The notes under the pieces were generated by a model. It did not search any database. It was not told the DNA's origin and was given only the letters and a program-made list of their open reading frames with translations. Shown here in pieces: positions 5,775-27,210 of a DNA stretch of 27,210 nucleotides. Position numbers and translations under genes: made by a program. The stretch is from Escherichia coli (GTDB taxonomy: Bacteria; Pseudomonadota; Gammaproteobacteria; Enterobacterales; Enterobacteriaceae): the NCBI GenBank assembly GCA_005388305.1, contig GCA_005388305.1_4327.1, one strand, 5' to 3'. How positions within the stretch are numbered: the stretch's first letter is position 1; each line of letters opens with the position of its first letter.

Positions 5775-7195
5775 TTCTTACCTCTTCTCTTCATATAATT
5801 AAGCAACTCTTCCTGTACCGATTTCTTCTCGTCCGTACGCGCGGCAACAACCTCGTCAAGAGTGTCTTTAGCGACTATGTGATAAAGGAACACCGGGCGC
5901 TCGTGGCCTGCCTGCTTCTGGCGTACTGGACCTATACGCTCGACGACCTGCAAATAGTGCTCAAGGTTCCAGCCTTGTGAAATGAATGCCAGATGATGCC
6001 CGCCGTCCTGTAAATTCAAACCATGCCCGGCTGACGCGGGATGCACGCACAAAATCTCGATTTCGCCTCGGTTCCACGCCTCCATCTGCTTATTACCCTT
6101 CGCGCCTTTAGAAAATGCCTGCGCCTGTGGGAACCGCTTAAGGATACGCTCAAGTTCGTGCTTAAACTGATAGGCCACAAGTAACGGTGCGCCCTGTAAC
6201 TCCTCGACAATGGACTCGAGCGCATCCAGTTTCGTATCGTGCACTTTCTCCCAGTCTTTCGTTGCCTCACCGTCCGGCCCTGACACATATACGGCGCCGG
6301 ATGCAATCTGCAAACACTTTGACGTCTTCGCTGCGGCGTTAGCCGCTTCTACTTCCCCGCTCTCCAGTTCCGCGAATAACTTCTCCTCCATATCGATGTA
6401 CGCCTGGCGTGCTTTCTTCGGCAGGTCTATTTCAACTGGTACGATAATCGGCGCTTCGCAACCGAACCACTCGGCAGCGTCAATCGTGAGACTAATGTCC
6501 TTCATCTTCTGATGAATCTCGGTATCCGCACCCGGGCGGGCGTGATACTCACGCGCCATCGCCGATTTGCCTTTCTGTACAGAGTTGAACCAGCGGTCGG
6601 TGAACGCAGTGTACGATGAGCCGAGGCGCTCGCCAGCGTCGATAAACCAGTTCTGGCCCCACAGGTCTTTGAGGCCGTTAGGCGACGGTGTGCCCGTCAG
6701 ATTGATGAAACGCTTAACTTTACCGAACGCCACTTTGCTGAGCGCCTTTGCCCGCTTGCTACCACCAGAACGGCTACGGAATGACTTCAGTTTCGTACTC
6801 TCATCTGCAACGATAACCGTAAAAGGCCAGTCGTCTTTGCCGTAGTAGTCAATCAGCCACTCGATAACTTCGTAGTTGGTACACACCACGTTAACATCTG
6901 ACTCCAGCGCCGCGATGCGGCGCTTTTCTGAACCAGTTGCATCGACGACGCTCAGACATGGGAATTGCCATTTCTCTTGTTCTGCGGGCCACGTACCCGA
7001 CGCAACGCGCAGCGGGGCGAGGATTAACACGCGGTCGTCATCATTAAGTTGACCGTTGCGGAACAGTCTGTTTAACGCCCACAGTACGCTGCCAGTCTTC
7101 CCGGCGCCCATGCTCGCCCATATGTTGCAGCGATGGTGCTGCAACATGAACGAAGTCATGAGCTTCTGGTATTCGCGCCTTTGAAACTTACTCAT
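5771..7195 (-). CDS. SNF2-family (superfamily 2) DNA helicase, 474 aa
   Basis: Walker A ASMGAGKTG, motif II VIVADEST, motif III LTGTP, C-terminal motif VI-like QVVERIGPVRQKQAG. Start overlaps the methyltransferase stop by 8 nt. Confidence 0.8.
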   Translation of the reverse strand: MSKFQRREYQKLMTSFMLQHHRCNIWASMGAGKTGSVLWALNRLFRNGQLNDDDRVLILAPLRVASGTWPAEQEKWQFPCLSVVDATGSEKRRIAALESDVNVVCTNYEVIEWLIDYYGKDDWPFTVIVADESTKLKSFRSRSGGSKRAKALSKVAFGKVKRFINLTGTPSPNGLKDLWGQNWFIDAGERLGSSYTAFTDRWFNSVQKGKSAMAREYHARPGADTEIHQKMKDISLTIDAAEWFGCEAPIIVPVEIDLPKKARQAYIDMEEKLFAELESGEVEAANAAAKTSKCLQIASGAVYVSGPDGEATKDWEKVHDTKLDALESIVEELQGAPLLVAYQFKHELERILKRFPQAQAFSKGAKGNKQMEAWNRGEIEILCVHPASAGHGLNLQDGGHHLAFISQGWNLEHYLQVVERIGPVRQKQAGHERPVFLYHIVAKDTLDEVVAARTDEKKSVQEELLNYMKRRGKK

Positions 7196-8111
7196 TTACG
7201 GCCCCCATAAACGCCTTTATAAATTCGGCGGCTACTTGCGGGACGATGGCATTGCCGTAACCGCGCAATCGTCCCACTCTTGCGGGTATCCCATTAGCCA
7301 GCGGGAATGTGCCGGGTTCAACTGGCCTGAATTTTCCATCCCGGCATCCGAGCCAGTCAGCATCTGACCAGTAGCCGTGATGCGGATTGGTTGATTCACC
7401 AAATATTGTGCGTGCGTCGCCAGATTGCAATTCGCATTCGGCCTGTTGAATCTCTTTTCCGCATATGCTTGCGGGTCTTTCGCTCGGCTGTTGTTGTCGT
7501 CTGCAACTGATGGCGCTGGCCATGCAGCTAAATGGCGGGCTTGTCCGGCAAGCGTCTGCAAACCGCGTTTCGTATCTGGTTGCGGATTGGTGTTCGCGGT
7601 CGGCGTGTACCATTCTTTTTGCACCAAAAAAGAGTCGCTCTCTTTTGTGCGGTGCGCCGACGCTACAAGCTGGGAGTACGGCAAACCCGACGGCGTAGTC
7701 TTCTCCTTCCAGGTGAGTTTGTAAATCGCACATCCACGATTTTGCAATTGCTGGCGCAACCTGCTCCCCAAAGAGGACTGGAGGTCGGCACTCGCTGATA
7801 AGGTCGAGGAACACAGGTGCGAGGTGTCTCGGGTCGAACTGTCCGAGTTGCTTTCCCGCCGCGCTAAACGGTTGGCAAGGCGGGCTTCCCGTCCAGAGAG
7901 GCGTATCCTCCGAAACTCCCGCAAGTCTGAGCGCGAGAGGCCAGCCGCCGATACCAGCGAAAAAATGACACTGGGTGAACCCGTCAAGGTCTTCTGGCTT
8001 AACTTCGGTAATGCTTCTTTCATCTACAACTCCAAAAGGTATGTGACCATGTTTTATTAATTCACGCAGCCACGCGGCTGCGCCTTTATCCCATTCGTTG
8101 TAATAGTTCAT
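7188..8111 (-). CDS. DNA (cytosine-5)-methyltransferase, 307 aa
   Basis: Motif I HFFAGIGG (FxGxGG), motif IV GSPPCQPFSAAGK (catalytic PCQ), motif VIII-like PHKRERLFF, motif X-like LRGYGNAIVPQVA. Confidence 0.8.
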   Translation of the reverse strand: MNYYNEWDKGAAAWLRELIKHGHIPFGVVDERSITEVKPEDLDGFTQCHFFAGIGGWPLALRLAGVSEDTPLWTGSPPCQPFSAAGKQLGQFDPRHLAPVFLDLISECRPPVLFGEQVAPAIAKSWMCDLQTHLEGEDYAVGFAVLPACSVGAPHKRERLFFGAKRMVHADREHQSATRYETRFADACRTSPPFSCMASAISCRRQQQPSERPASICGKEIQQAECELQSGDARTIFGESTNPHHGYWSDADWLGCRDGKFRPVEPGTFPLANGIPARVGRLRGYGNAIVPQVAAEFIKAFMGAVNE

Positions 8112-8329: not shown

Positions 8330-8617
8330 CTAACTATAATAGTTCGCTATTAGGTCGTCAACCTGTTTAAACGAACCAACGACAAAAACATTCGCACCAC
8401 GTTTACGCATACGCTCGTGCTCACGTAACTGGTGTGGGTCTGGCTTCGTGTTTTCGTCTTTCTTAACCTCGACGAACAAGACGATGCCGCCGGGTAGAAT
8501 TACCAGCAGGTCGGGAGCGCCGGAGCGCCCCTCATAGGAAAGTTTACGAACGAGGCCGCCGATAGCCTCGAATCGCTCTTTTGCGTATTTCTGCACGCGC
8601 CCCTCAGGCGTACTCAT
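8330..8617 (-). CDS. VRR-NUC domain nuclease, 95 aa
   Basis: Small PD-(D/E)xK-type protein with GAPDLLV…VEVKK acidic/Lys catalytic pattern typical of VRR-NUC; GGGAGGGG RBS upstream of the ATG at 8617. Confidence 0.7.
   Translation of the reverse strand: MSTPEGRVQKYAKERFEAIGGLVRKLSYEGRSGAPDLLVILPGGIVLFVEVKKDENTKPDPHQLREHERMRKRGANVFVVGSFKQVDDLIANYYS
8333..8361 (-). promoter_or_regulatory. sigma70-like promoter (TTGACG-17-TATAGT on the - strand) inside a copy of the conserved 30-bp element
   Basis: + strand reads AACTATAATAGTTCGCTATTAGGTCGTCAAC; reverse complement gives -35 TTGACG (8361-8356), 17-bp spacer, -10 TATAGT (8338-8333). Overlaps the 3' end of the VRR-NUC CDS and sits ~35 nt upstream of the 63-aa gene. 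Confidence 0.5.
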
Positions 8618-11838: not shown

Positions 11839-11867
11839 ACTATAATAGCTAACTATTCAGGTGTCAA
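11839..11867 (-). promoter_or_regulatory. sigma70-like promoter (TTGACA-17-TATAGT on the - strand) inside a copy of the conserved 30-bp element
   Basis: + strand GAACTATAATAGCTAACTATTCAGGTGTCAACAC; - strand -35 TTGACA (11867-11862), 17-bp spacer, -10 TATAGT (11844-11839); ~50 nt upstream of the SSB-like ATG. Confidence 0.55.
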
Positions 11868-13277: not shown

Positions 13278-13546
13278 ACCCTGACCTCCCACTGGTCGAT
13301 TAAATGCCGCGTCTTATGGTCGCAATGCATAGCCCAGCTATACATCGACTCGAAGACATAAAAGTCACTTTTAACGAAAGTCGTGCGCTTAATCTGCGAC
13401 AGGTGACGGCCTATATCTTTCGGCTTCGGTATTTTTCCAAGGTAGGCCATCTCTTCCATCTGGTGTGCACCGGACGGCGCACGCAATAACCATAGCGCCT
13501 CTGTGTTATCCCGCCTGTCAACGGCGCGGTATAGTTGGTAAATCAT
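13274..13546 (-). CDS. hypothetical protein, 90 aa
   Basis: ORF with GAGGG RBS-like sequence upstream of ATG 13546; part of the leftward operon; no recognisable motif. Confidence 0.5.
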   Translation of the reverse strand: MIYQLYRAVDRRDNTEALWLLRAPSGAHQMEEMAYLGKIPKPKDIGRHLSQIKRTTFVKSDFYVFESMYSWAMHCDHKTRHLIDQWEVRV

Positions 13547-13566
13547 AATCCCGACCCTCAGTTAAA

Positions 13567-13582
13567 GCGGCCCGAAGGCCGC
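13567..13582 (-). other. GC-rich hairpin between the acidic-protein gene and the 90-aa gene
   Basis: GCGGCC-CGAA-GGCCGC stem-loop in the 43-nt intergenic gap; possible attenuator or RNA-stability element. Confidence 0.3.
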
Positions 13583-13589
13583 GGGATAG

Positions 13590-14111
13590 TTATTCTTCTT
13601 CGAAATACTTGTTCTTGATTGCTGTCAGGCGCTCCAGATACTCAGCCAGGTCTTCGTCTTTAATCGCTGCAATCTTCATCTTCTTACCGGTGAACTCTTC
13701 CAGCAGTTCGTCAGAATCGTCGCACGCGGCCTCGCTTGGGCCTTCGTTAATCGCATCGTCGATAGCCTGAATCTGGTCGCGCAGAGACTGGTAATCGACT
13801 TCTTCTTTCTCTTCTTCCGGCTCTGGCGTTGGTTCCTCTACTTTGTCCTTACGCGGCTTGCGCTTCGGCTTCTCTTCTTCTGCGGGTTTAGCGTCAACGG
13901 TGTCTTCACCTTCTACCGGGATTTCTTTCGCCTTCTCGACTTCTTCAAGTGCTTTAGCCAGCTCTTTTTTAACTGTTTCTACCCCCGTGACCGCGACGTC
14001 AACAGTCAATTCACCTACAGATTTGCTAGTCGGTTGTTTCACACTGTTTGCAGCAATCAGTTCGTGGGCGACTACGAAACGTTCCAGTAATACTAAGAAT
14101 TTCTCTAACAT
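13590..14111 (-). CDS. highly acidic hypothetical protein, 173 aa
   Basis: First gene downstream of the promoter at 14143-14171; GAGAGGAGA RBS; extremely D/E-rich with one Lys/Arg patch (KPKRKPRKDK). Confidence 0.6.
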   Translation of the reverse strand: MLEKFLVLLERFVVAHELIAANSVKQPTSKSVGELTVDVAVTGVETVKKELAKALEEVEKAKEIPVEGEDTVDAKPAEEEKPKRKPRKDKVEEPTPEPEEEKEEVDYQSLRDQIQAIDDAINEGPSEAACDDSDELLEEFTGKKMKIAAIKDEDLAEYLERLTAIKNKYFEEE

Positions 14112-14142
14112 TATTTATTCTCCTCTCGTTTGGTATGGGCTA

Positions 14143-14171
14143 ACTATAATAGTGAACTATTCACTTGTCAA
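14143..14171 (-). promoter_or_regulatory. sigma70-like promoter (TTGACA-17-TATAGT on the - strand) inside a copy of the conserved 30-bp element, in a divergent intergenic region
   Basis: + strand TAACTATAATAGTGAACTATTCACTTGTCAATGG; - strand -35 TTGACA (14171-14166), 17-bp spacer, -10 TATAGT (14148-14143). A second partial copy of the element (GGTACTATTCACATATCAA, 14197-14215) lies just before the rightward XRE gene. Confidence 0.55.
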
Positions 14172-14235
14172 TGGGCTTTTCTAAAATAATTAATATGGTA
14201 CTATTCACATATCAACTGACTAAGGAGTAATTGAC

Positions 14236-14451
14236 ATGCAACCATCTGAACTAGGCATCCGTGTAGAACAGCGCCGTAAAGAACTCAGTATTTCCCAGCG
14301 CCGTCTGGCTGTCCTGACCGGCGTTTCCCAGGGTGCAATTAACCAGCTTGCACTCGGGGTAACGCGGGACGTCCGCCCAGCAACGCTGTTTAAACTGGCG
14401 GAAGTGCTAGAGGTAGACGCCAAGTGGCTGGCGTTCGGTGAAGGGGCTTAA
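14236..14451 (+). CDS. XRE-family helix-turn-helix transcriptional regulator (Cro/CI-like), 71 aa
   Basis: HTH signature QRRLAVLTGVSQGAINQLALG; AAGGAG RBS before ATG 14236; followed immediately by a terminator; the only rightward gene inside the leftward operon. Confidence 0.8.
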   Translation: MQPSELGIRVEQRRKELSISQRRLAVLTGVSQGAINQLALGVTRDVRPATLFKLAEVLEVDAKWLAFGEGA

Positions 14452-14467
14452 CGCCCCTTTCTTTTTA
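14441..14467. terminator. rho-independent terminator after the XRE gene (between convergent genes)
   Basis: AAGGGGC-TTAAC-GCCCCTT hairpin containing the XRE stop codon, followed by TCTTTTTATT. Confidence 0.55.
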
Positions 14468-14662
14468 TTGCACCTTTATCGGGTATCTTTTGCGAAACTT
14501 ACCTAACCCGCAGTATACGCTGTAAGCCTCTGTGTAACTGTACACAACATGATACCCGCGCCCGTAAGGAACTACGTTAAGAACTTCCACTACTTCGCCT
14601 CTGTGGTTGGTGCATTTATTACCTTTAAGTTCGTCGCTTACTTCTTTAAATTTACCGCTCAT
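14465..14662 (-). CDS. hypothetical protein, 65 aa
   Basis: ATG at 14662 forms an ATGA overlap with the primase-helicase stop (14659-14661); no recognisable motif. Confidence 0.45.
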   Translation of the reverse strand: MSGKFKEVSDELKGNKCTNHRGEVVEVLNVVPYGRGYHVVYSYTEAYSVYCGLGKFRKRYPIKVQ

Positions 14663-16926
14663 TCCAAATCCTCCTCTGTCACTGTCAGCATCTCATTCGG
14701 TTCATATATTGTCTTCGGAATCTTGTTATCAGTTATCCGGGTGTTCAGCCTGTAACGGCAAGGGATTATCTGATTGTTTTCGTCAGTCCCCGGAACAAGA
14801 TACCCAGCCTCAACCATTTTCTTAATCTTCCCGCGTTCTATGGCTTCTTTGGAGTTAAACGCCTTTGCATTGGGGTCAGACTGTGCGAGCTTATTAGCGG
14901 CGGCGACTGTGATGCCTTCGTTGCCGTTGTAGGTTCCTTCCGCCAGTTCAAACGCCGCCAGTATCGTGGCTTCCGAACTGTTGACGGCGTTCTCCATGGT
15001 TCTACGTACGTTTTCTTTACCTTCCTTAGTCAGTCCTTCTTCCCGCTCTTTCTCCTCGTCAGTCTTGAACGGCTCGAAACCCCACGGCATTAACACAAGT
15101 GCCTTATGCGGCTCCGGCAGGTCGAGGTTTACGATTGTGCCGTATTCCTCCGTGCTACCGAGGAACTCAACCGCACGGTACTCTTTCGGCGGCGGCGCTT
15201 CACGGAACTGTACAGACTCCAGCACCATACCAACCGTCTTCTGTTGAGGCCCGTGCTTGAATTTCGAGTGGTATACATTTATCTGGCGGTCGGTAGCTCG
15301 TTCGATTGTCAGTTCCACGTCGACGCCAGCATACAGCGCCCCACTGCCACGGGCTTTCTTTCCGCCCTTCGGCGTATGGTGGACAACGCCTACCGCAGCT
15401 TTAGTCGCGTCACGTACTTCTTTCAGGATGGCGATAACCTTACCCATGCCGATTGCCGTTGATGAACTGTTCTCGTCGAACTTATCAATCGTCAGGGCTA
15501 GCGTCTGGTTGAGGGTGTCGAACGCAACCATGCCGATGGGTTCGTCACCCGCAGTTTCACGCATCAACTTAATCAGGCTTTTCAGTTTTCCGACTTCGCC
15601 CATGTCGATGACATGTACATAATCTTTACCTTCCTCGCCATATTTAGCCGCGAGCGCATCGATACGGGTGCGGGTAGCTGCGCCGCCTTCACCGTCGATA
15701 TAGAAATGGTGGCAACGCTGCGTATCTGCCCCCGCAAACCGGTATCCGGCGGCGCTCAGGTACGCCATCCCCAGCGTATAGAACGATTTGTACGTGCCGG
15801 ATTCCCCGACAATATCCCAGATACAATCTGACGGCATGTACCCTTCAACGACGAAATCCGCCTTTACCGGTTCCGGTAACTCGTCATCCTCTGAGTCCTC
15901 GTCATCTTCCAGGTCGTCGAGGCTGCATGAAACAGATTCACGTGCACCCCATCCGATGGCCTCTGCGACTTCACTGAACGGCAGCCCCGTCGCATCGCAC
16001 GCATACTTCCACACCTCTTTCGGTGACATGCCTTCGGTCGCCGTAATGTCGGTGTCGTGAATCATTGTTACGTTCGGCGCCTCATATCCCTCTCGCGGGA
16101 AGCACAGCAGGAAGTCATCCGGGCGCGGCGTCGGGTCGCTGTAGTTTTCTGCGTGTTCTGGCGTAGCTGGCATCTTAAGGCCTCGTGGCGTCATGATACC
16201 GCCATACTCGAACGCCAGTGCCTCGAACGCGTCGGTAAACGCGGTGCGCAGTTCTTCCGGTATCTGGTAATCCGATGCGCTGCTAACGTCAACGGCGGGG
16301 ATGCCTTCCAGTAACTCGTCCGGGTCAATCAGGTCGTTGCGGCGTGACCAGATAACGGTAGAGCCAACCGGAGGCAGGTACATCGGTTGCGAAAGAGTGA
16401 ACCCGCTGCGGTCAGCACCCATGCTTTTGAAGAAGTGTTCCAGCAATCCATGGCGAACACGGATGATGTCACCACCTTCGACCGGACGGGCCAGCGGCAT
16501 GACGACGCGAAAGCGCGGGGACTCGTCGGTATGTGATGCCGTGGTATAGAGGCACATGGCCTGGCGGCTACGCTTAACCAGGCGTACAGCTTCCTGATAC
16601 TCTTCCGGCGTTGCACTGTCGAAGTCCAGATACGCCAGCGACGATTTGCTTACAGACGCATCACAGCGATAGAAGAAACCCTTACGCGCTTGCTTAAAGT
16701 CGCCGGTTTTCGGGTCTTTTACAGTGCTGTGCGTCGAGTCGCACGCGGCGGTGATATAACCGGGCGCGGTCTTCGGGTTAATTCCGTCACGGACAGCATC
16801 AAGCGGCTGGATTAACTCTTTCAGGTCGTCCAGTGTTGCCGTGTGTGTGGTTCTGACGTTTATATCCTTTTTCTCTGCCCGCGCGTTGCGACGTGACCAC
16901 GAGTAGGATAAAATTACATCGGACAT
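14659..16926 (-). CDS. replicative primase-helicase (N-terminal primase-polymerase-like region plus C-terminal RecA/RepA-like AAA_25 ATPase), 755 aa
   Basis: Walker A GESGTYKS, Walker B MVAFDTL, VVHHTPKGG motif typical of RepA-like ATPases; N-terminal half has an acidic LAYLDFD motif reminiscent of prim-pol catalytic sites. Confidence 0.75.
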   Translation of the reverse strand: MSDVILSYSWSRRNARAEKKDINVRTTHTATLDDLKELIQPLDAVRDGINPKTAPGYITAACDSTHSTVKDPKTGDFKQARKGFFYRCDASVSKSSLAYLDFDSATPEEYQEAVRLVKRSRQAMCLYTTASHTDESPRFRVVMPLARPVEGGDIIRVRHGLLEHFFKSMGADRSGFTLSQPMYLPPVGSTVIWSRRNDLIDPDELLEGIPAVDVSSASDYQIPEELRTAFTDAFEALAFEYGGIMTPRGLKMPATPEHAENYSDPTPRPDDFLLCFPREGYEAPNVTMIHDTDITATEGMSPKEVWKYACDATGLPFSEVAEAIGWGARESVSCSLDDLEDDEDSEDDELPEPVKADFVVEGYMPSDCIWDIVGESGTYKSFYTLGMAYLSAAGYRFAGADTQRCHHFYIDGEGGAATRTRIDALAAKYGEEGKDYVHVIDMGEVGKLKSLIKLMRETAGDEPIGMVAFDTLNQTLALTIDKFDENSSSTAIGMGKVIAILKEVRDATKAAVGVVHHTPKGGKKARGSGALYAGVDVELTIERATDRQINVYHSKFKHGPQQKTVGMVLESVQFREAPPPKEYRAVEFLGSTEEYGTIVNLDLPEPHKALVLMPWGFEPFKTDEEKEREEGLTKEGKENVRRTMENAVNSSEATILAAFELAEGTYNGNEGITVAAANKLAQSDPNAKAFNSKEAIERGKIKKMVEAGYLVPGTDENNQIIPCRYRLNTRITDNKIPKTIYEPNEMLTVTEEDLE

Positions 16927-16984
16927 GTTGTATTTCCTTCAGCAAGTAATTTGGCCTCGGCGTTCACCGCGTCGGGGCTTTCTT

Positions 16985-17260
16985 TTATTCCAGGTCGCGG
17001 GAGATATTACCCTCGGGCACCAACACTTTTCCAATACTTCTCGCTTTCTCTGTAATCGGCGTTGCTCTTTTTGCCCGATAAAACTTTCCTTTATTAAGAA
17101 CCTCTCCGTGTTGCTCGAGAACATCCAAAGCATGTTTAATCGGATTTACACCGTAATTATCTAACCGGTATCTCCGAAGCCCGTCTACCGTAAAAGCGCC
17201 GTTCGCCTCGGTCAGTCTGCGTGCACACATTAATATGTGTTTCTGGAATTTAGTTAGCAT
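16985..17260 (-). CDS. hypothetical protein, 91 aa
   Basis: ORF overlapping the upstream HTH gene by 11 nt; second gene of the leftward operon; no confident motif. Confidence 0.5.
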   Translation of the reverse strand: MLTKFQKHILMCARRLTEANGAFTVDGLRRYRLDNYGVNPIKHALDVLEQHGEVLNKGKFYRAKRATPITEKARSIGKVLVPEGNISRDLE

Positions 17261-17429
17261 CTTTCACGTTCTCCTTAATCCACGCCTCCACGGTAGCTCG
17301 GTCAAACGTACCTGGCTGCCGGTAGCCGTTAATAACACGACAACACTCCGGGAACTTACCGGACCGAAGCCAGCGATTAAGAGTCATAGGGGAAACTCCG
17401 ATTAAGTCTGCTACTTCTTTCTGTGTCAT
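17250..17429 (-). CDS. AlpA/excisionase-like helix-turn-helix DNA-binding protein, ~59 aa
   Basis: MTQKEVADLIGVSPMTLNRWLRSGKFP is a typical HTH_17/AlpA-type motif. Start set at the internal ATG 17429 (AGAGGG RBS 7 nt upstream); the ORF-track start 17459 would lie inside the putative promoter. Confidence 0.6.
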   Translation of the reverse strand: MTQKEVADLIGVSPMTLNRWLRSGKFPECCRVINGYRQPGTFDRATVEAWIKENVKDAN

Positions 17430-17487: not shown

Positions 17488-17492
17488 CCTAT

Positions 17493-17519
17493 TGACAAAA
17501 TAAAATGTAGCTGTAAAAT
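17493..17519 (+). promoter_or_regulatory. putative rightward sigma70-like promoter (TTGACA-15-TAAAAT), back-to-back with the leftward promoter
   Basis: TTGACA at 17493-17498, TAAAAT at 17514-17519; the 15-bp spacer is shorter than optimal. Confidence 0.35.
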
Positions 17520-17752
17520 CAACGTATCGAAGGACCTTAGTTCAGAATTACTTAGAAACATTATTCTTAAGTCTCGGGTACTTAAAGCCCCGCCTTAAAG
17601 CGGGGCGCTAAACAGTACTCTTGGTAACGTTAGTATCTAAGTTTCCTCAAAGTAACAGCAAGTGGCAAGAAAGCCCCCGTCTATTTAAATTTTACCCTCC
17701 TTCATAAGTACCTGATAATTAAAAGTTTCTATAGTTGCCGTGAGTGAGGTAG

Positions 17753-17811
17753 AGAGTACTTCACTCCGCTGGGGTGGGCTAACGCCCACCCACTGCGTTG
17801 CGTACTCTTTT
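17753..17811 (+). terminator. compound hairpin followed by a T-tract (putative terminator or structured RNA element) in the non-coding control region
   Basis: Outer stem AGAGTAC (17753-17759) / GTACTCT (17802-17808) enclosing inner stem GGGTGGGC-TAAC-GCCCACCC (17772-17791), followed by TTTT (17808-17811). Confidence 0.4.
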
Positions 17812-17850
17812 AAGAAACGAAAGAATCACAACGGCAACGTAACTATTTTC

Positions 17851-17879
17851 TTGCACACCCAAACATAATAGGGTACTAT
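17851..17879 (+). promoter_or_regulatory. sigma70-like promoter (TTGCAC-17-TACTAT) inside a copy of the conserved element, driving the rightward small-gene block
   Basis: -35 TTGCAC 17851-17856, spacer containing CATAATAG, -10 TACTAT 17874-17879, then AGGAG RBS and ATG 17914. Confidence 0.5.
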
Positions 17880-17913
17880 TCACTTATCGAAACGAGACAG
17901 AGGAGTGAGGGTT

Positions 17914-19307: not shown

Positions 19308-19336
19308 TTGCACACTAAGATATAATAGGCTACTAT
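19308..19336 (+). promoter_or_regulatory. sigma70-like promoter (TTGCAC-17-TACTAT) inside a copy of the conserved element
   Basis: -35 TTGCAC 19308-19313, spacer containing TATAATAG, -10 TACTAT 19331-19336; RBS GAGAGGAGAG and ATG 19368 follow. Confidence 0.5.
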
Positions 19337-19367
19337 TCATTTACACGAGCGAGAGGAGAGACAGAAT

Positions 19368-21810: not shown

Positions 21811-21842
21811 TCCCGGCCCTGACCCAGCCGGGATTTTTTTTT
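21811..21842 (+). terminator. rho-independent terminator after the lysis cassette
   Basis: Stem TCCCGGC / GCCGGGA with 10-nt loop, followed by a run of 9 T. Confidence 0.75.
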
Positions 21843-21864
21843 ATCTATTTTCTGCAATGACTAG

Positions 21865-21893
21865 TTGACTATTACCATCGACCCTATTATATT
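21865..21893 (+). promoter_or_regulatory. sigma70-like promoter (TTGACT-17-TATATT) within a variant of the conserved element
   Basis: -35 TTGACT 21865-21870, -10 TATATT 21888-21893; flanked by duplicated CCATCGAC (21875-21882 and 21897-21904) and CTATTA motifs; RBS GGAG and ATG 21927 follow. Confidence 0.5.
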
Positions 21894-21926
21894 TACTCCA
21901 TCGACAACGAGAACGGAGTAGAGAAG

Positions 21927-26933: not shown

Positions 26934-26947
26934 GTAAAAAAAAAACT

Positions 26948-26975
26948 AAGGCCCCATAACAGGGCCTTAGTTTTT
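26948..26975. terminator. bidirectional rho-independent terminator between the portal gene and the convergent small gene
   Basis: AAGGCCC-CATAACA-GGGCCTT hairpin with an A-run upstream and TTTTT downstream. Confidence 0.6.
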
Positions 26976-27165
26976 AGTTAAGGTACGCTGCTCGCCCCGC
27001 CATATACCCCGCGAGATACATTTTAAACCATTCGTTGCATTCACCGTTCTCATAGTACGCACCAATTTTCCACATTTCTTTTGTTTCACGATCAAAGCGG
27101 AAGCGCCCCTTGCAGTTCTTCTCAAATAATTCCATGATTTCATACCATTCTTTAGAATATAACAT
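26974..27165 (-). CDS. hypothetical protein, 63 aa, AT-rich leftward gene (moron-like)
   Basis: ORF on the strand opposite the packaging genes; GGAGA RBS; copy of the conserved promoter element upstream; terminator downstream; visibly more AT-rich than its neighbours. Confidence 0.5.
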   Translation of the reverse strand: MLYSKEWYEIMELFEKNCKGRFRFDRETKEMWKIGAYYENGECNEWFKMYLAGYMAGRAAYLN

Positions 27166-27181
27166 TTTTGTATCTCCTCGT

Positions 27182-27210
27182 TTCGATAACTGAATAGTAC
27201 ACTATTATAT
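27182..27210 (-). promoter_or_regulatory. copy of the conserved promoter element on the - strand (partial, cut by the window end)
   Basis: Reverse complement reads ATATAATAGTGTACTATTCAGTTATCGAAA, near-identical to the copy at 17864-17893; -10 TACTAT would be 27200-27195; the -35 lies beyond the window. Confidence 0.35.

Follow-up and report, generated by a model that had tools for sequence, protein, structure and literature searches.

A Cro-type regulator gene and a recurrent operator-like dyad in the genome of a Kagunavirus

We analysed a stretch of 27,210 nucleotides from an Escherichia coli assembly (GCA_005388305.1, contig GCA_005388305.1_4327.1; hereafter, the window), with a focus on xre, a small rightward gene encoding a putative helix-turn-helix (HTH) regulator, and on the control region that precedes it. 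By sequence identity, the window DNA is that of a Kagunavirus (Guernseyvirinae), the nearest E. coli phage being K1G: positions 13500-15000 were 97% identical to Escherichia phage K1G (448 phage records were matched), and the best records for positions 1-25000 were those of K1G and K1H (93% identity, 87% coverage). The window opens with tail genes on the plus strand, continues with a long leftward replication and recombination block (5.8-17.4 kb), and ends with rightward small genes followed by lysis, terminase and portal genes. All family-supported genes between 5771 and 17429 lie on the minus strand, xre excepted, while the seven other plus-strand open reading frames (ORFs) of at least 100 aa in this interval, as well as an ORF antisense to xre, gave no PHROG matches. 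An Rfam scan of the whole window returned no families. A check for lysogeny genes in the closest relative found neither an integrase nor a CI annotation in the complete K1G genome. The original prediction for this locus had described xre as the only plus-strand gene between 5.8 and 17.4 kb of an apparently virulent genome, and both parts of this description held.

The xre product (MQPSELGIRVEQRRKELSISQRRLAVLTGVSQGAINQLALGVTRDVRPATLFKLAEVLEVDAKWLAFGEGA, 71 aa) matched the Pfam profile HTH_3 (PF01381) with an E-value of 1.2e-11 and a score of 44.8 bits (cut-off 23), over profile positions 2-55 of 55. The HTH_19 profile likewise scored above its cut-off, and the PHROG matches of the protein were to transcription-regulator families. 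Its best sequence match in the Protein Data Bank (PDB) was the Cro protein of phage 434 (71 aa), with residues 6-68 of the query aligned to residues 4-64 of Cro (E 8.9e-7), followed by the 434 repressor and P22 C2. An AlphaFold2 model, built with close homologues only, was of moderate confidence (a predicted local distance difference test score of 76.6) and comprised four helices, with helices 1 and 2 fused; when it was searched with Foldseek, 434 Cro (2CRO), P22 C2 and the 434 repressor came out on top, with E-values (0.05-0.3) that were not significant. Because of the quality of the model and the non-significance of its fold matches, we based the family assignment on sequence homology. A homologue on an IMG/VR contig (L052; related loci are labelled with L and a number) was 44% identical to the XRE protein and diverged from a gene for a CI-type HTH-S24 repressor, with cII-like, O-like and DnaC-like genes following it. 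This homologue occupies the cro position of a lambdoid immunity region and is therefore a true Cro. The XRE protein is thus a Cro homologue kept in a virulent lineage.

xre and the gene for an acidic protein are transcribed divergently from a shared control region that holds two copies of a dyad, O1 and O2 (Table 1). No HTH was found among the Pfam and PHROG matches of the acidic protein. O1 lies within a near-consensus leftward promoter, and O2 overlaps the presumed -10 of xre; an alternative xre promoter, TTCACT-16-TAAAAT, was found at 14160-14187. At its other end, xre is closed by an intrinsic terminator in which the TAA stop codon (14449-14451) sits in the loop. The Jerseyvirus xre terminator has the same stop-in-loop design, with TGA as the stop codon and a different stem sequence. 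On the minus strand the hairpin has no U-tract and is one-directional, and leftward helicase-primase transcripts are therefore not expected to stop there. Taken together, these features bear out the original prediction of a Cro-like 71-aa HTH protein, transcribed divergently from an intergenic region with two copies of a conserved element and terminated by a hairpin that contains its own stop codon.

Table 1. Features of the xre locus and of the dyad-bearing promoters in the window (strand as + or -; a dot marks a feature given without strand)
Feature	Position	Strand	Remarks
Divergent acidic-protein gene	13590..14111	-	173 aa, pI 4.5, 47 D+E vs 26 K+R, phrog_3127
Divergent control region, acidic-protein gene/xre	14112..14235	.	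124 bp, two dyads, starts 44 bp apart
Class I leftward promoter TTGACA-17-TATAGT (11/12)	14143..14171	-	drives acidic-protein gene and downstream genes (predicted)
Dyad O1, TAATAGtgaaCTATTC	14147..14162	.	spacer/-10 of leftward promoter, about -26 to -11
Dyad O2, TAATATggtaCTATTC	14191..14206	.	overlaps presumed xre -10
Presumed xre -10, extended TG (TGgTACTAT)	14196..14204	+	no good -35; deduced from sequence
xre ribosome-binding site AAGGAG	14222..14227	+	8 nt before ATG, sequence reading
xre gene	14236..14451	+	71-aa single-domain HTH_3 protein, 434 Cro-like, pI 9.7
Putative recognition helix of XRE protein	around S31-Q37 (VSQGAINQ)		
Intrinsic terminator of xre	14440..14469	+	8-bp stem 14440-14460, loop TTAAC, then TTTCTTTTTATT T-run; -13.3 kcal/mol
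Class I promoter, perfect dyad TAATAGttcgCTATTA (8337-8352)	8333..8361	-	
Class I promoter, dyad TAATAGctaaCTATTC (11843-11858)	11839..11867	-	upstream of DUF2815/ssDNA-binding gene and DNA polymerase gene
Second small DNA-binding gene, HTH_17	17250..17429	-	59 aa; heads the leftward helicase-primase operon; competing candidate for regulator
Class II promoter TTGCAC-17-TACTAT, dyad TAATAGggtaCTATTC (17866-17881)	17851..17881	+	dyad about -20 to -5
Class II promoter, dyad TAATAGgctaCTATTC (19323-19338)	19308..19338	+	
Class II cassette, GAATAGtacaCTATTA	27192..27207	-	cut by window end; upstream of 63-aa ORF 26974-27165 (-)

The core of the repeat is a 16-bp dyad, TAATAG-N4-CTATTM, with half-site centres 10 bp apart. 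Allowing up to two mismatches, we found eight matches in the window against 0.90 expected, a number that none of 100 shuffled sequences reached. All but one of these matches fall in two classes of promoter cassette, and sites occur in both orientations. The six copies of the repeat family and the additional one at 27192 are all located at promoter-like sites. In class I, which comprises the three leftward promoters of Table 1, the dyad is embedded in TTGACA-N3-GAATAG-N4-CTATTA-TAGT, such that the cassette reads as a near-consensus TTGACA-17-TATAGT promoter with the dyad at about -26 to -11. In class II, the arrangement is TTGCAC-N9-TAATAG-N4-CTATTC, equivalent to TTGCAC-17-TACTAT with the dyad at about -20 to -5, followed by a shared leader and ribosome-binding site. 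The O2 cassette proximal to xre is a relative of class II: Jerseyvirus has the full TTGCAC-N9-dyad form, whereas the copy in this phage has a TG ahead of its -10 but no longer a -35. The remaining match (21859) is a degenerate dyad in a promoter-like region past the endolysin terminator, and it is conserved in Jerseyvirus and St162. At this site (window 21820-21900), a terminator (CCCGGC..GCCGGG and T9) closes the endolysin gene, and beyond it lie the degenerate dyad GACTAGttgaCTATTA (21859-21874) and CCCTATTATATTTA. The whole arrangement is conserved in the same two phages, and it may be the promoter region of the small-gene/terminase (late) operon.

Several properties distinguish the dyad from the promoter sequence around it. 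Among 23 distinct versions of O1 from Kagunavirus loci, neither half-site carried a single substitution, while the central N4 differed between versions, and the 3-4 nt that link the dyad to the -35 differed in sequence as well as in length. In class I promoters, the right half-site falls within the spacer (-26 to -21), a part in which RNA polymerase requires no particular sequence, yet it is invariant. The register of the dyad to the -35 also shifts: the distance from the -35 to the start of the dyad is 3 nt in class I, 6 nt in St162-like and L046-like phages and 9 nt in class II. In Jerseyvirus, the class I promoters carry an asymmetric core, TAATAGagtaCGATTA, in both orientations, and the Jerseyvirus locus holds seven dyad matches against 0.51 expected. 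The Tsm2 genome has four dyad sites at promoters, and a relaxed motif matched the St162 genome nine times against 1.0 expected, always between genes. The invariant half-sites, the shifting register, the occurrence in both orientations and the enrichment in distant relatives therefore favour the dyad being an operator-like protein site, most likely, to judge from its context, an operator for the XRE protein acting as a repressor. The conserved element of the original prediction thus proved to be dyad-symmetric, operator-like and recurrent at other promoters; what that prediction had missed is the combination of sigma-70 promoter and dyad into a cassette, and the existence of two cassette classes.

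xre itself is widespread. Homologues were found by tblastn in 557 phage records (Kagunavirus, Jerseyvirus and others), at protein identities of 93-99% within Kagunavirus, ~48% in Jerseyvirus and 39-41% in St162-like phages and Serratia phage Tsm2, and the phages that carry them infect Escherichia, Salmonella, Serratia and Raoultella hosts. The ratio of nonsynonymous to synonymous substitution (dN/dS) against five relatives was 0.04-0.19, at a dS of up to 0.88, and among homologues 75-94% identical the segment G29-T43, which includes the presumed recognition helix, was almost invariant. The ribosome-binding site, promoter cassette and terminator of xre are kept across genera that share only 48% protein identity. 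By these measures, xre belongs to the core genes of the subfamily and is subject to purifying selection.

Public records already name this gene, as 'transcriptional regulator Cro' (Snoke), 'transcriptional repressor', 'DicA' or 'DNA-binding HTH protein', while the K1G record leaves it unannotated. An xre terminator is annotated in Snoke, and divergent promoters together with a terminator in PVP-SE2. CPT_Snoke_050 (96% identity) and ORF_17 of PVP-SE2 (49%) are the same gene in the same position, with the same divergent promoters and terminator; these two records hold names and predicted signals only, and do not describe the dyad, its distribution or the inversion discussed below. In the literature we found genome announcements that name the gene, some genome papers still claiming that no repressor is present, and no experimental study of it. 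The gene, its promoters and its terminator are thus already annotated in public records; we found no earlier description of the dyad regulon, of the two classes of cassette or of the inversion.

The isolated position of xre has its explanation in the neighbouring helicase-primase gene. This gene lies on the plus strand, downstream of xre, in St162, Tsm2, L043, L046, L047 and L051 (L005 and L007 show this layout), and on the minus strand in the window, L073 and Jerseyvirus. In the relatives with the plus-strand layout, the genome diverges at the control region alone, with xre opening the rightward arm; in St162 and Tsm2, the two relatives whose sequences were read, a terminator-like hairpin separates xre from the helicase-primase gene. 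The inverted block of the window, L073 and Jerseyvirus has a promoter region of its own at ~17.47 kb, and in the window phage it extends from a 65-aa ORF to HTH_17. xre is therefore lone, monocistronic and convergent with the helicase-primase gene because the helicase-primase block was inverted. The layout had been recognized by the original prediction, which spoke of a lone gene; its origin by inversion had not.

With regard to the protein that binds the dyad, co-occurrence and geometry point to XRE. No other recognisable sequence-specific regulator accompanies the dyad throughout the subfamily. Judging by the known operators of 434 and P22, a dimer of the 434 Cro type fits a 16-bp dyad in which the outer hexamers are conserved and the centre is free to vary, and the presence of two dyads in the gene's own promoter region is a usual mark of autoregulation. 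The innermost base of the dyad half-sites adds a possible covariation with the recognition helix, being G/G in clades with the helix SQG..N. (Kagunavirus, Tsm2) and including C in clades with the helices SQGRVSH, TQGGIGH and TQSAISH; this is a weak signal, amounting to essentially one evolutionary event. Since every dyad overlaps a core promoter, repression is to be expected, rather than activation.

Thus, we arrived at the following reading, to which we assign a probability of roughly 55%: a 434 Cro-type protein binds the 16-bp dyads as a dimer and represses its own promoter, that of the acidic-protein operon and the other dyad promoters, in a Cro-like turn-down. The gene, its fold family, the selection acting on it, the promoter-like hexamers, the terminator, the enrichment and footprint of the dyad, and the synteny are directly supported; from these we infer XRE as the binder, the sign of regulation and its timing. 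In such a scheme, the XRE protein would build up from its own weak promoter and then occupy O1 and O2, which would repress both the acidic-protein operon promoter (leftward turn-down) and the xre promoter (negative autoregulation). It would also act on the dyads of at least five further promoters in the window (at 8.3, 11.8, 17.87, 19.32 and 27.19 kb), leading to a genome-wide turn-down of early and middle promoters read by host RNA polymerase, with no lysogenic alternative, much as Cro acts on PL and PR when a lambdoid phage grows lytically. By virtue of its terminator, xre would be a self-contained unit whose transcription does not continue, as antisense, into the convergent helicase-primase gene.

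A more far-reaching version, which we consider doubtful, is that one Cro-type repressor and one 16-bp dyad in essentially every early and middle cassette (at least seven in the 27-kb window, in both orientations) account for the entire timing of gene expression in a strictly virulent subfamily of siphoviruses lacking an RNA polymerase. The K1G/Jersey inversion would, in this version, have turned xre into an insulated monocistronic unit convergent with the helicase-primase operon, and leftward read-through across it, there being no minus-strand terminator, would delay the build-up of repressor by transcriptional interference and so set the timing of the switch.

A number of observations weigh against XRE as the dyad-binding repressor. 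The half-sites resemble -10 hexamers (TATAAT, TACTAT), the left half overlapping TATAAT/TATAGT, and part of their conservation is therefore owed to promoter function. Kagunavirus, Jerseyvirus and Tsm2 have different recognition helices (SQGAINQ, SQSLITH and SQGMLNH, respectively), yet almost identical TAATAG half-sites. The region upstream of xre in Tsm2 is without a dyad and has another inverted repeat instead, TAGTGGGT..ACCCACTA, and the symmetry of the motif in St162-like phages is no more than a pseudo-symmetry. The structure model is of mediocre quality and its fold matches are not significant, and the literature yielded no binding or expression data for the XRE protein. Finally, RNA sequencing of the Kagunavirus vB_Eco_K1B4 classed an HTH gene (008) as early and a 'specific DNA binding' gene (004), which lies beside an AAA-domain gene (005), as middle; gene 004, middle and not early, is probably xre.

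Some of these observations would be accounted for if the dyad were no XRE operator at all, but an intrinsic feature of the sigma-70 cassette, i.e., two -10-like hexamers 10 bp apart that are copied along with leader and ribosome-binding site, or else the site of a host protein or of the early HTH_17 protein, with XRE as just another member of the regulon, binding elsewhere or only locally. We regard this as unlikely, though worth taking seriously. In its favour, the -10-like half-sites are joined by the repetition of entire cassettes, including the leader AAACGAGAGGAG, by the constancy of the half-site across clades with different recognition helices, and by the dyad-free xre upstream region of Tsm2, whose genome has four dyad promoters elsewhere. 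A mere cassette feature is difficult to reconcile with the right half-site of class I, which is invariant within the spacer while its neighbours vary, or with a core that occurs in both orientations and whose register to the -35 shifts by 3-6 bp between classes and clades. As for other binders, the HTH_17 gene is early in the Kagunavirus RNA sequencing data, yet it is confined to K1G-like and Jersey-like phages, and no homologue was found in the complete genomes of Tsm2 and St162, both of which keep dyads; we therefore set it aside as the dyad binder. No host consensus (CRP, ArgR, Fur, Fis, IHF, LexA or MarA-type) is known to fit the dyad, which speaks against a host regulator and which we treat as a lead only. 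In light of this second small HTH gene, the original prediction of a candidate master regulator is retained in part: a Cro-type protein with operator-like sites is present, whereas the rank of master is not established.

Two further accounts detach xre from the local dyads or from the lytic cycle. The main target of XRE could lie outside the phage, in host genes or in the operators of resident lambdoid prophages, e.g., blocking or triggering prophage functions, in which case the local dyads would be unrelated to it. Lambdoid prophages are common in the hosts of this phage group, and the nearest relatives of XRE beyond the subfamily are the Cro and CI proteins of enterobacterial temperate phages. 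We nevertheless consider this improbable: a monocistronic xre with two dyads in its own promoter region bears the signature of autoregulation, its recognition helix is unlike that of 434 Cro, and the gene is kept in phages of Escherichia, Salmonella, Serratia and Raoultella, whose prophage content differs. More improbable still is that xre is a leftover of a temperate ancestor's immunity region with no role in the lytic cycle. While its Cro-like layout lacks CI and integrase, and the K1G record leaves it without annotation, a leftover would hardly be present in 557 records, show the low dN/dS at high synonymous divergence reported above, or retain its ribosome-binding site, promoter cassette and terminator across genera.

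Having weighed these alternatives, we find that the most fitting description of XRE is a virulent phage's Cro-type repressor, and a comparison with known systems shows where it agrees with such proteins and where it departs from them. Like 434 Cro (PDB 2CRO/3CRO), XRE is a single-domain HTH_3 protein of 71 aa, with ~38% identity over nearly the full length and a common C-terminal D-x-x-W-L-x-x-G motif. As in lambdoid Cro systems, several dyads with conserved outer half-sites and a variable centre lie in a divergent control region, with multiple candidate operators over both promoters (one in TTGACA-17-TATAGT and one on the presumed xre -10), and in St162-like relatives xre heads a replication-gene operon with a terminator in between. 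Unlike in lambdoid phages, the divergent gene encodes a 173-aa acidic protein and not CI, there is neither integrase nor lysogeny, and the sites, instead of clustering at OR and OL, are distributed over at least seven promoters within 27 kb. The operator sequence is also different, ACAA-N6-TTGT in 434 vs TAATAG-N4-CTATTM (16 bp) here. In the window phage, moreover, xre is monocistronic and does not head a replication operon, as it does in St162-like phages, Tsm2, L043 and L046.

The controller (C) proteins of restriction-modification systems, such as C.AhdI and C.BclI, are likewise small XRE-type proteins and were among the fold matches of the XRE model; they are dimers that autoregulate through paired dyads over their own promoter. 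C proteins, however, are encoded directly upstream of the restriction gene and co-transcribed with it, whereas xre is monocistronic and has no endonuclease partner nearby, and the sole methyltransferase gene in the window (7188-8111) lies ~6 kb away on the opposite strand. A C-protein role was therefore rejected. A role as an XRE-type antitoxin (HigA/HipB/MqsA-like) was rejected as well: xre has no co-directional neighbour, its terminator directly follows the stop codon, and the matches to MqsA and HipB were weak.

Several side observations concern other leftward units preceded by dyads. Past the portal gene, the 63-aa ORF (26974-27165, minus strand; window 26935-27210) forms a second lone opposite-strand unit with a class II cassette upstream, and a hairpin flanked by A- and T-runs at its 3' end (~26940-26975) resembles a bidirectional terminator; the K1G sequence differs there. 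K1G (L076) itself has a leftward class II cassette at 14751-14766, before a small leftward operon that is embedded in the tail-gene region and encodes superinfection immunity, an exonuclease, a polynucleotide kinase and an ATP-binding protein. In St162 (L077), dyads precede each embedded leftward unit (24246, 25359, 26798 and 33415). The dyad cassette thus seems to accompany inserted, moron-like units.

Other observations concern the inverted block and its surroundings. Its promoter region contains a leftward promoter-like sequence, TTGTCA-16-TATTGT (17498-17471), that would drive the operon of HTH_17, a 91-aa ORF and helicase-primase, and a rightward one, TTGACA-16-TAAAAT (17492-17519; 11/12), whose -35 overlaps that of the leftward sequence. 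Both are without a dyad, and they may therefore be unregulated immediate-early promoters. The ~330 bp that follow (17520-17850) hold no convincing ORF, have GC-rich hairpins at ~17586-17609 and ~17771-17793 and gave no Rfam match; an early transcript without coding function, or an origin region, could lie here. A strong plus-strand terminator with an 11-bp stem (16953-16979) and a T-run (-22 kcal/mol, z -3.2) lies a short way upstream of the start codon of helicase-primase (16926, minus strand). It is preceded by a plus-strand promoter-like sequence, TTGCGA-17-TAAAAT (16886-16914), and its hairpin and T-run are also found in L073 and Jerseyvirus. This terminator and that of xre could bracket the helicase-primase gene against antisense transcription, or the former could end a ~65-nt antisense RNA over the translation start. 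At the other border, a 65-aa ORF (14465-14662; phrog_36357) between xre and helicase-primase is present in K1G-like phages and absent from L073 and Jerseyvirus, where the end of the helicase-primase gene abuts the xre terminator, and fEg-Eco06 and Snoke have additional small ORFs between the acidic-protein gene and xre. The xre/helicase-primase junction is a hot spot of small-gene gain and loss.

The Guernseyvirinae (Kagunavirus and Jerseyvirus) are among the phages proposed most often for therapy and food biocontrol, and offer a small chassis for phage engineering; how their expression is timed by the host polymerase alone has not been described previously. If XRE is indeed the repressor that acts on the dyads, the 'repressor' annotation that worries safety screens would denote a lytic-cycle regulator and not a marker of lysogeny, and engineers could take over the promoter-operator cassettes as they stand, as parts under phage control. 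For the biology of the subfamily, it would mean that another component of a temperate-phage switch has been reused in a virulent lineage, a useful and unsurprising addition.

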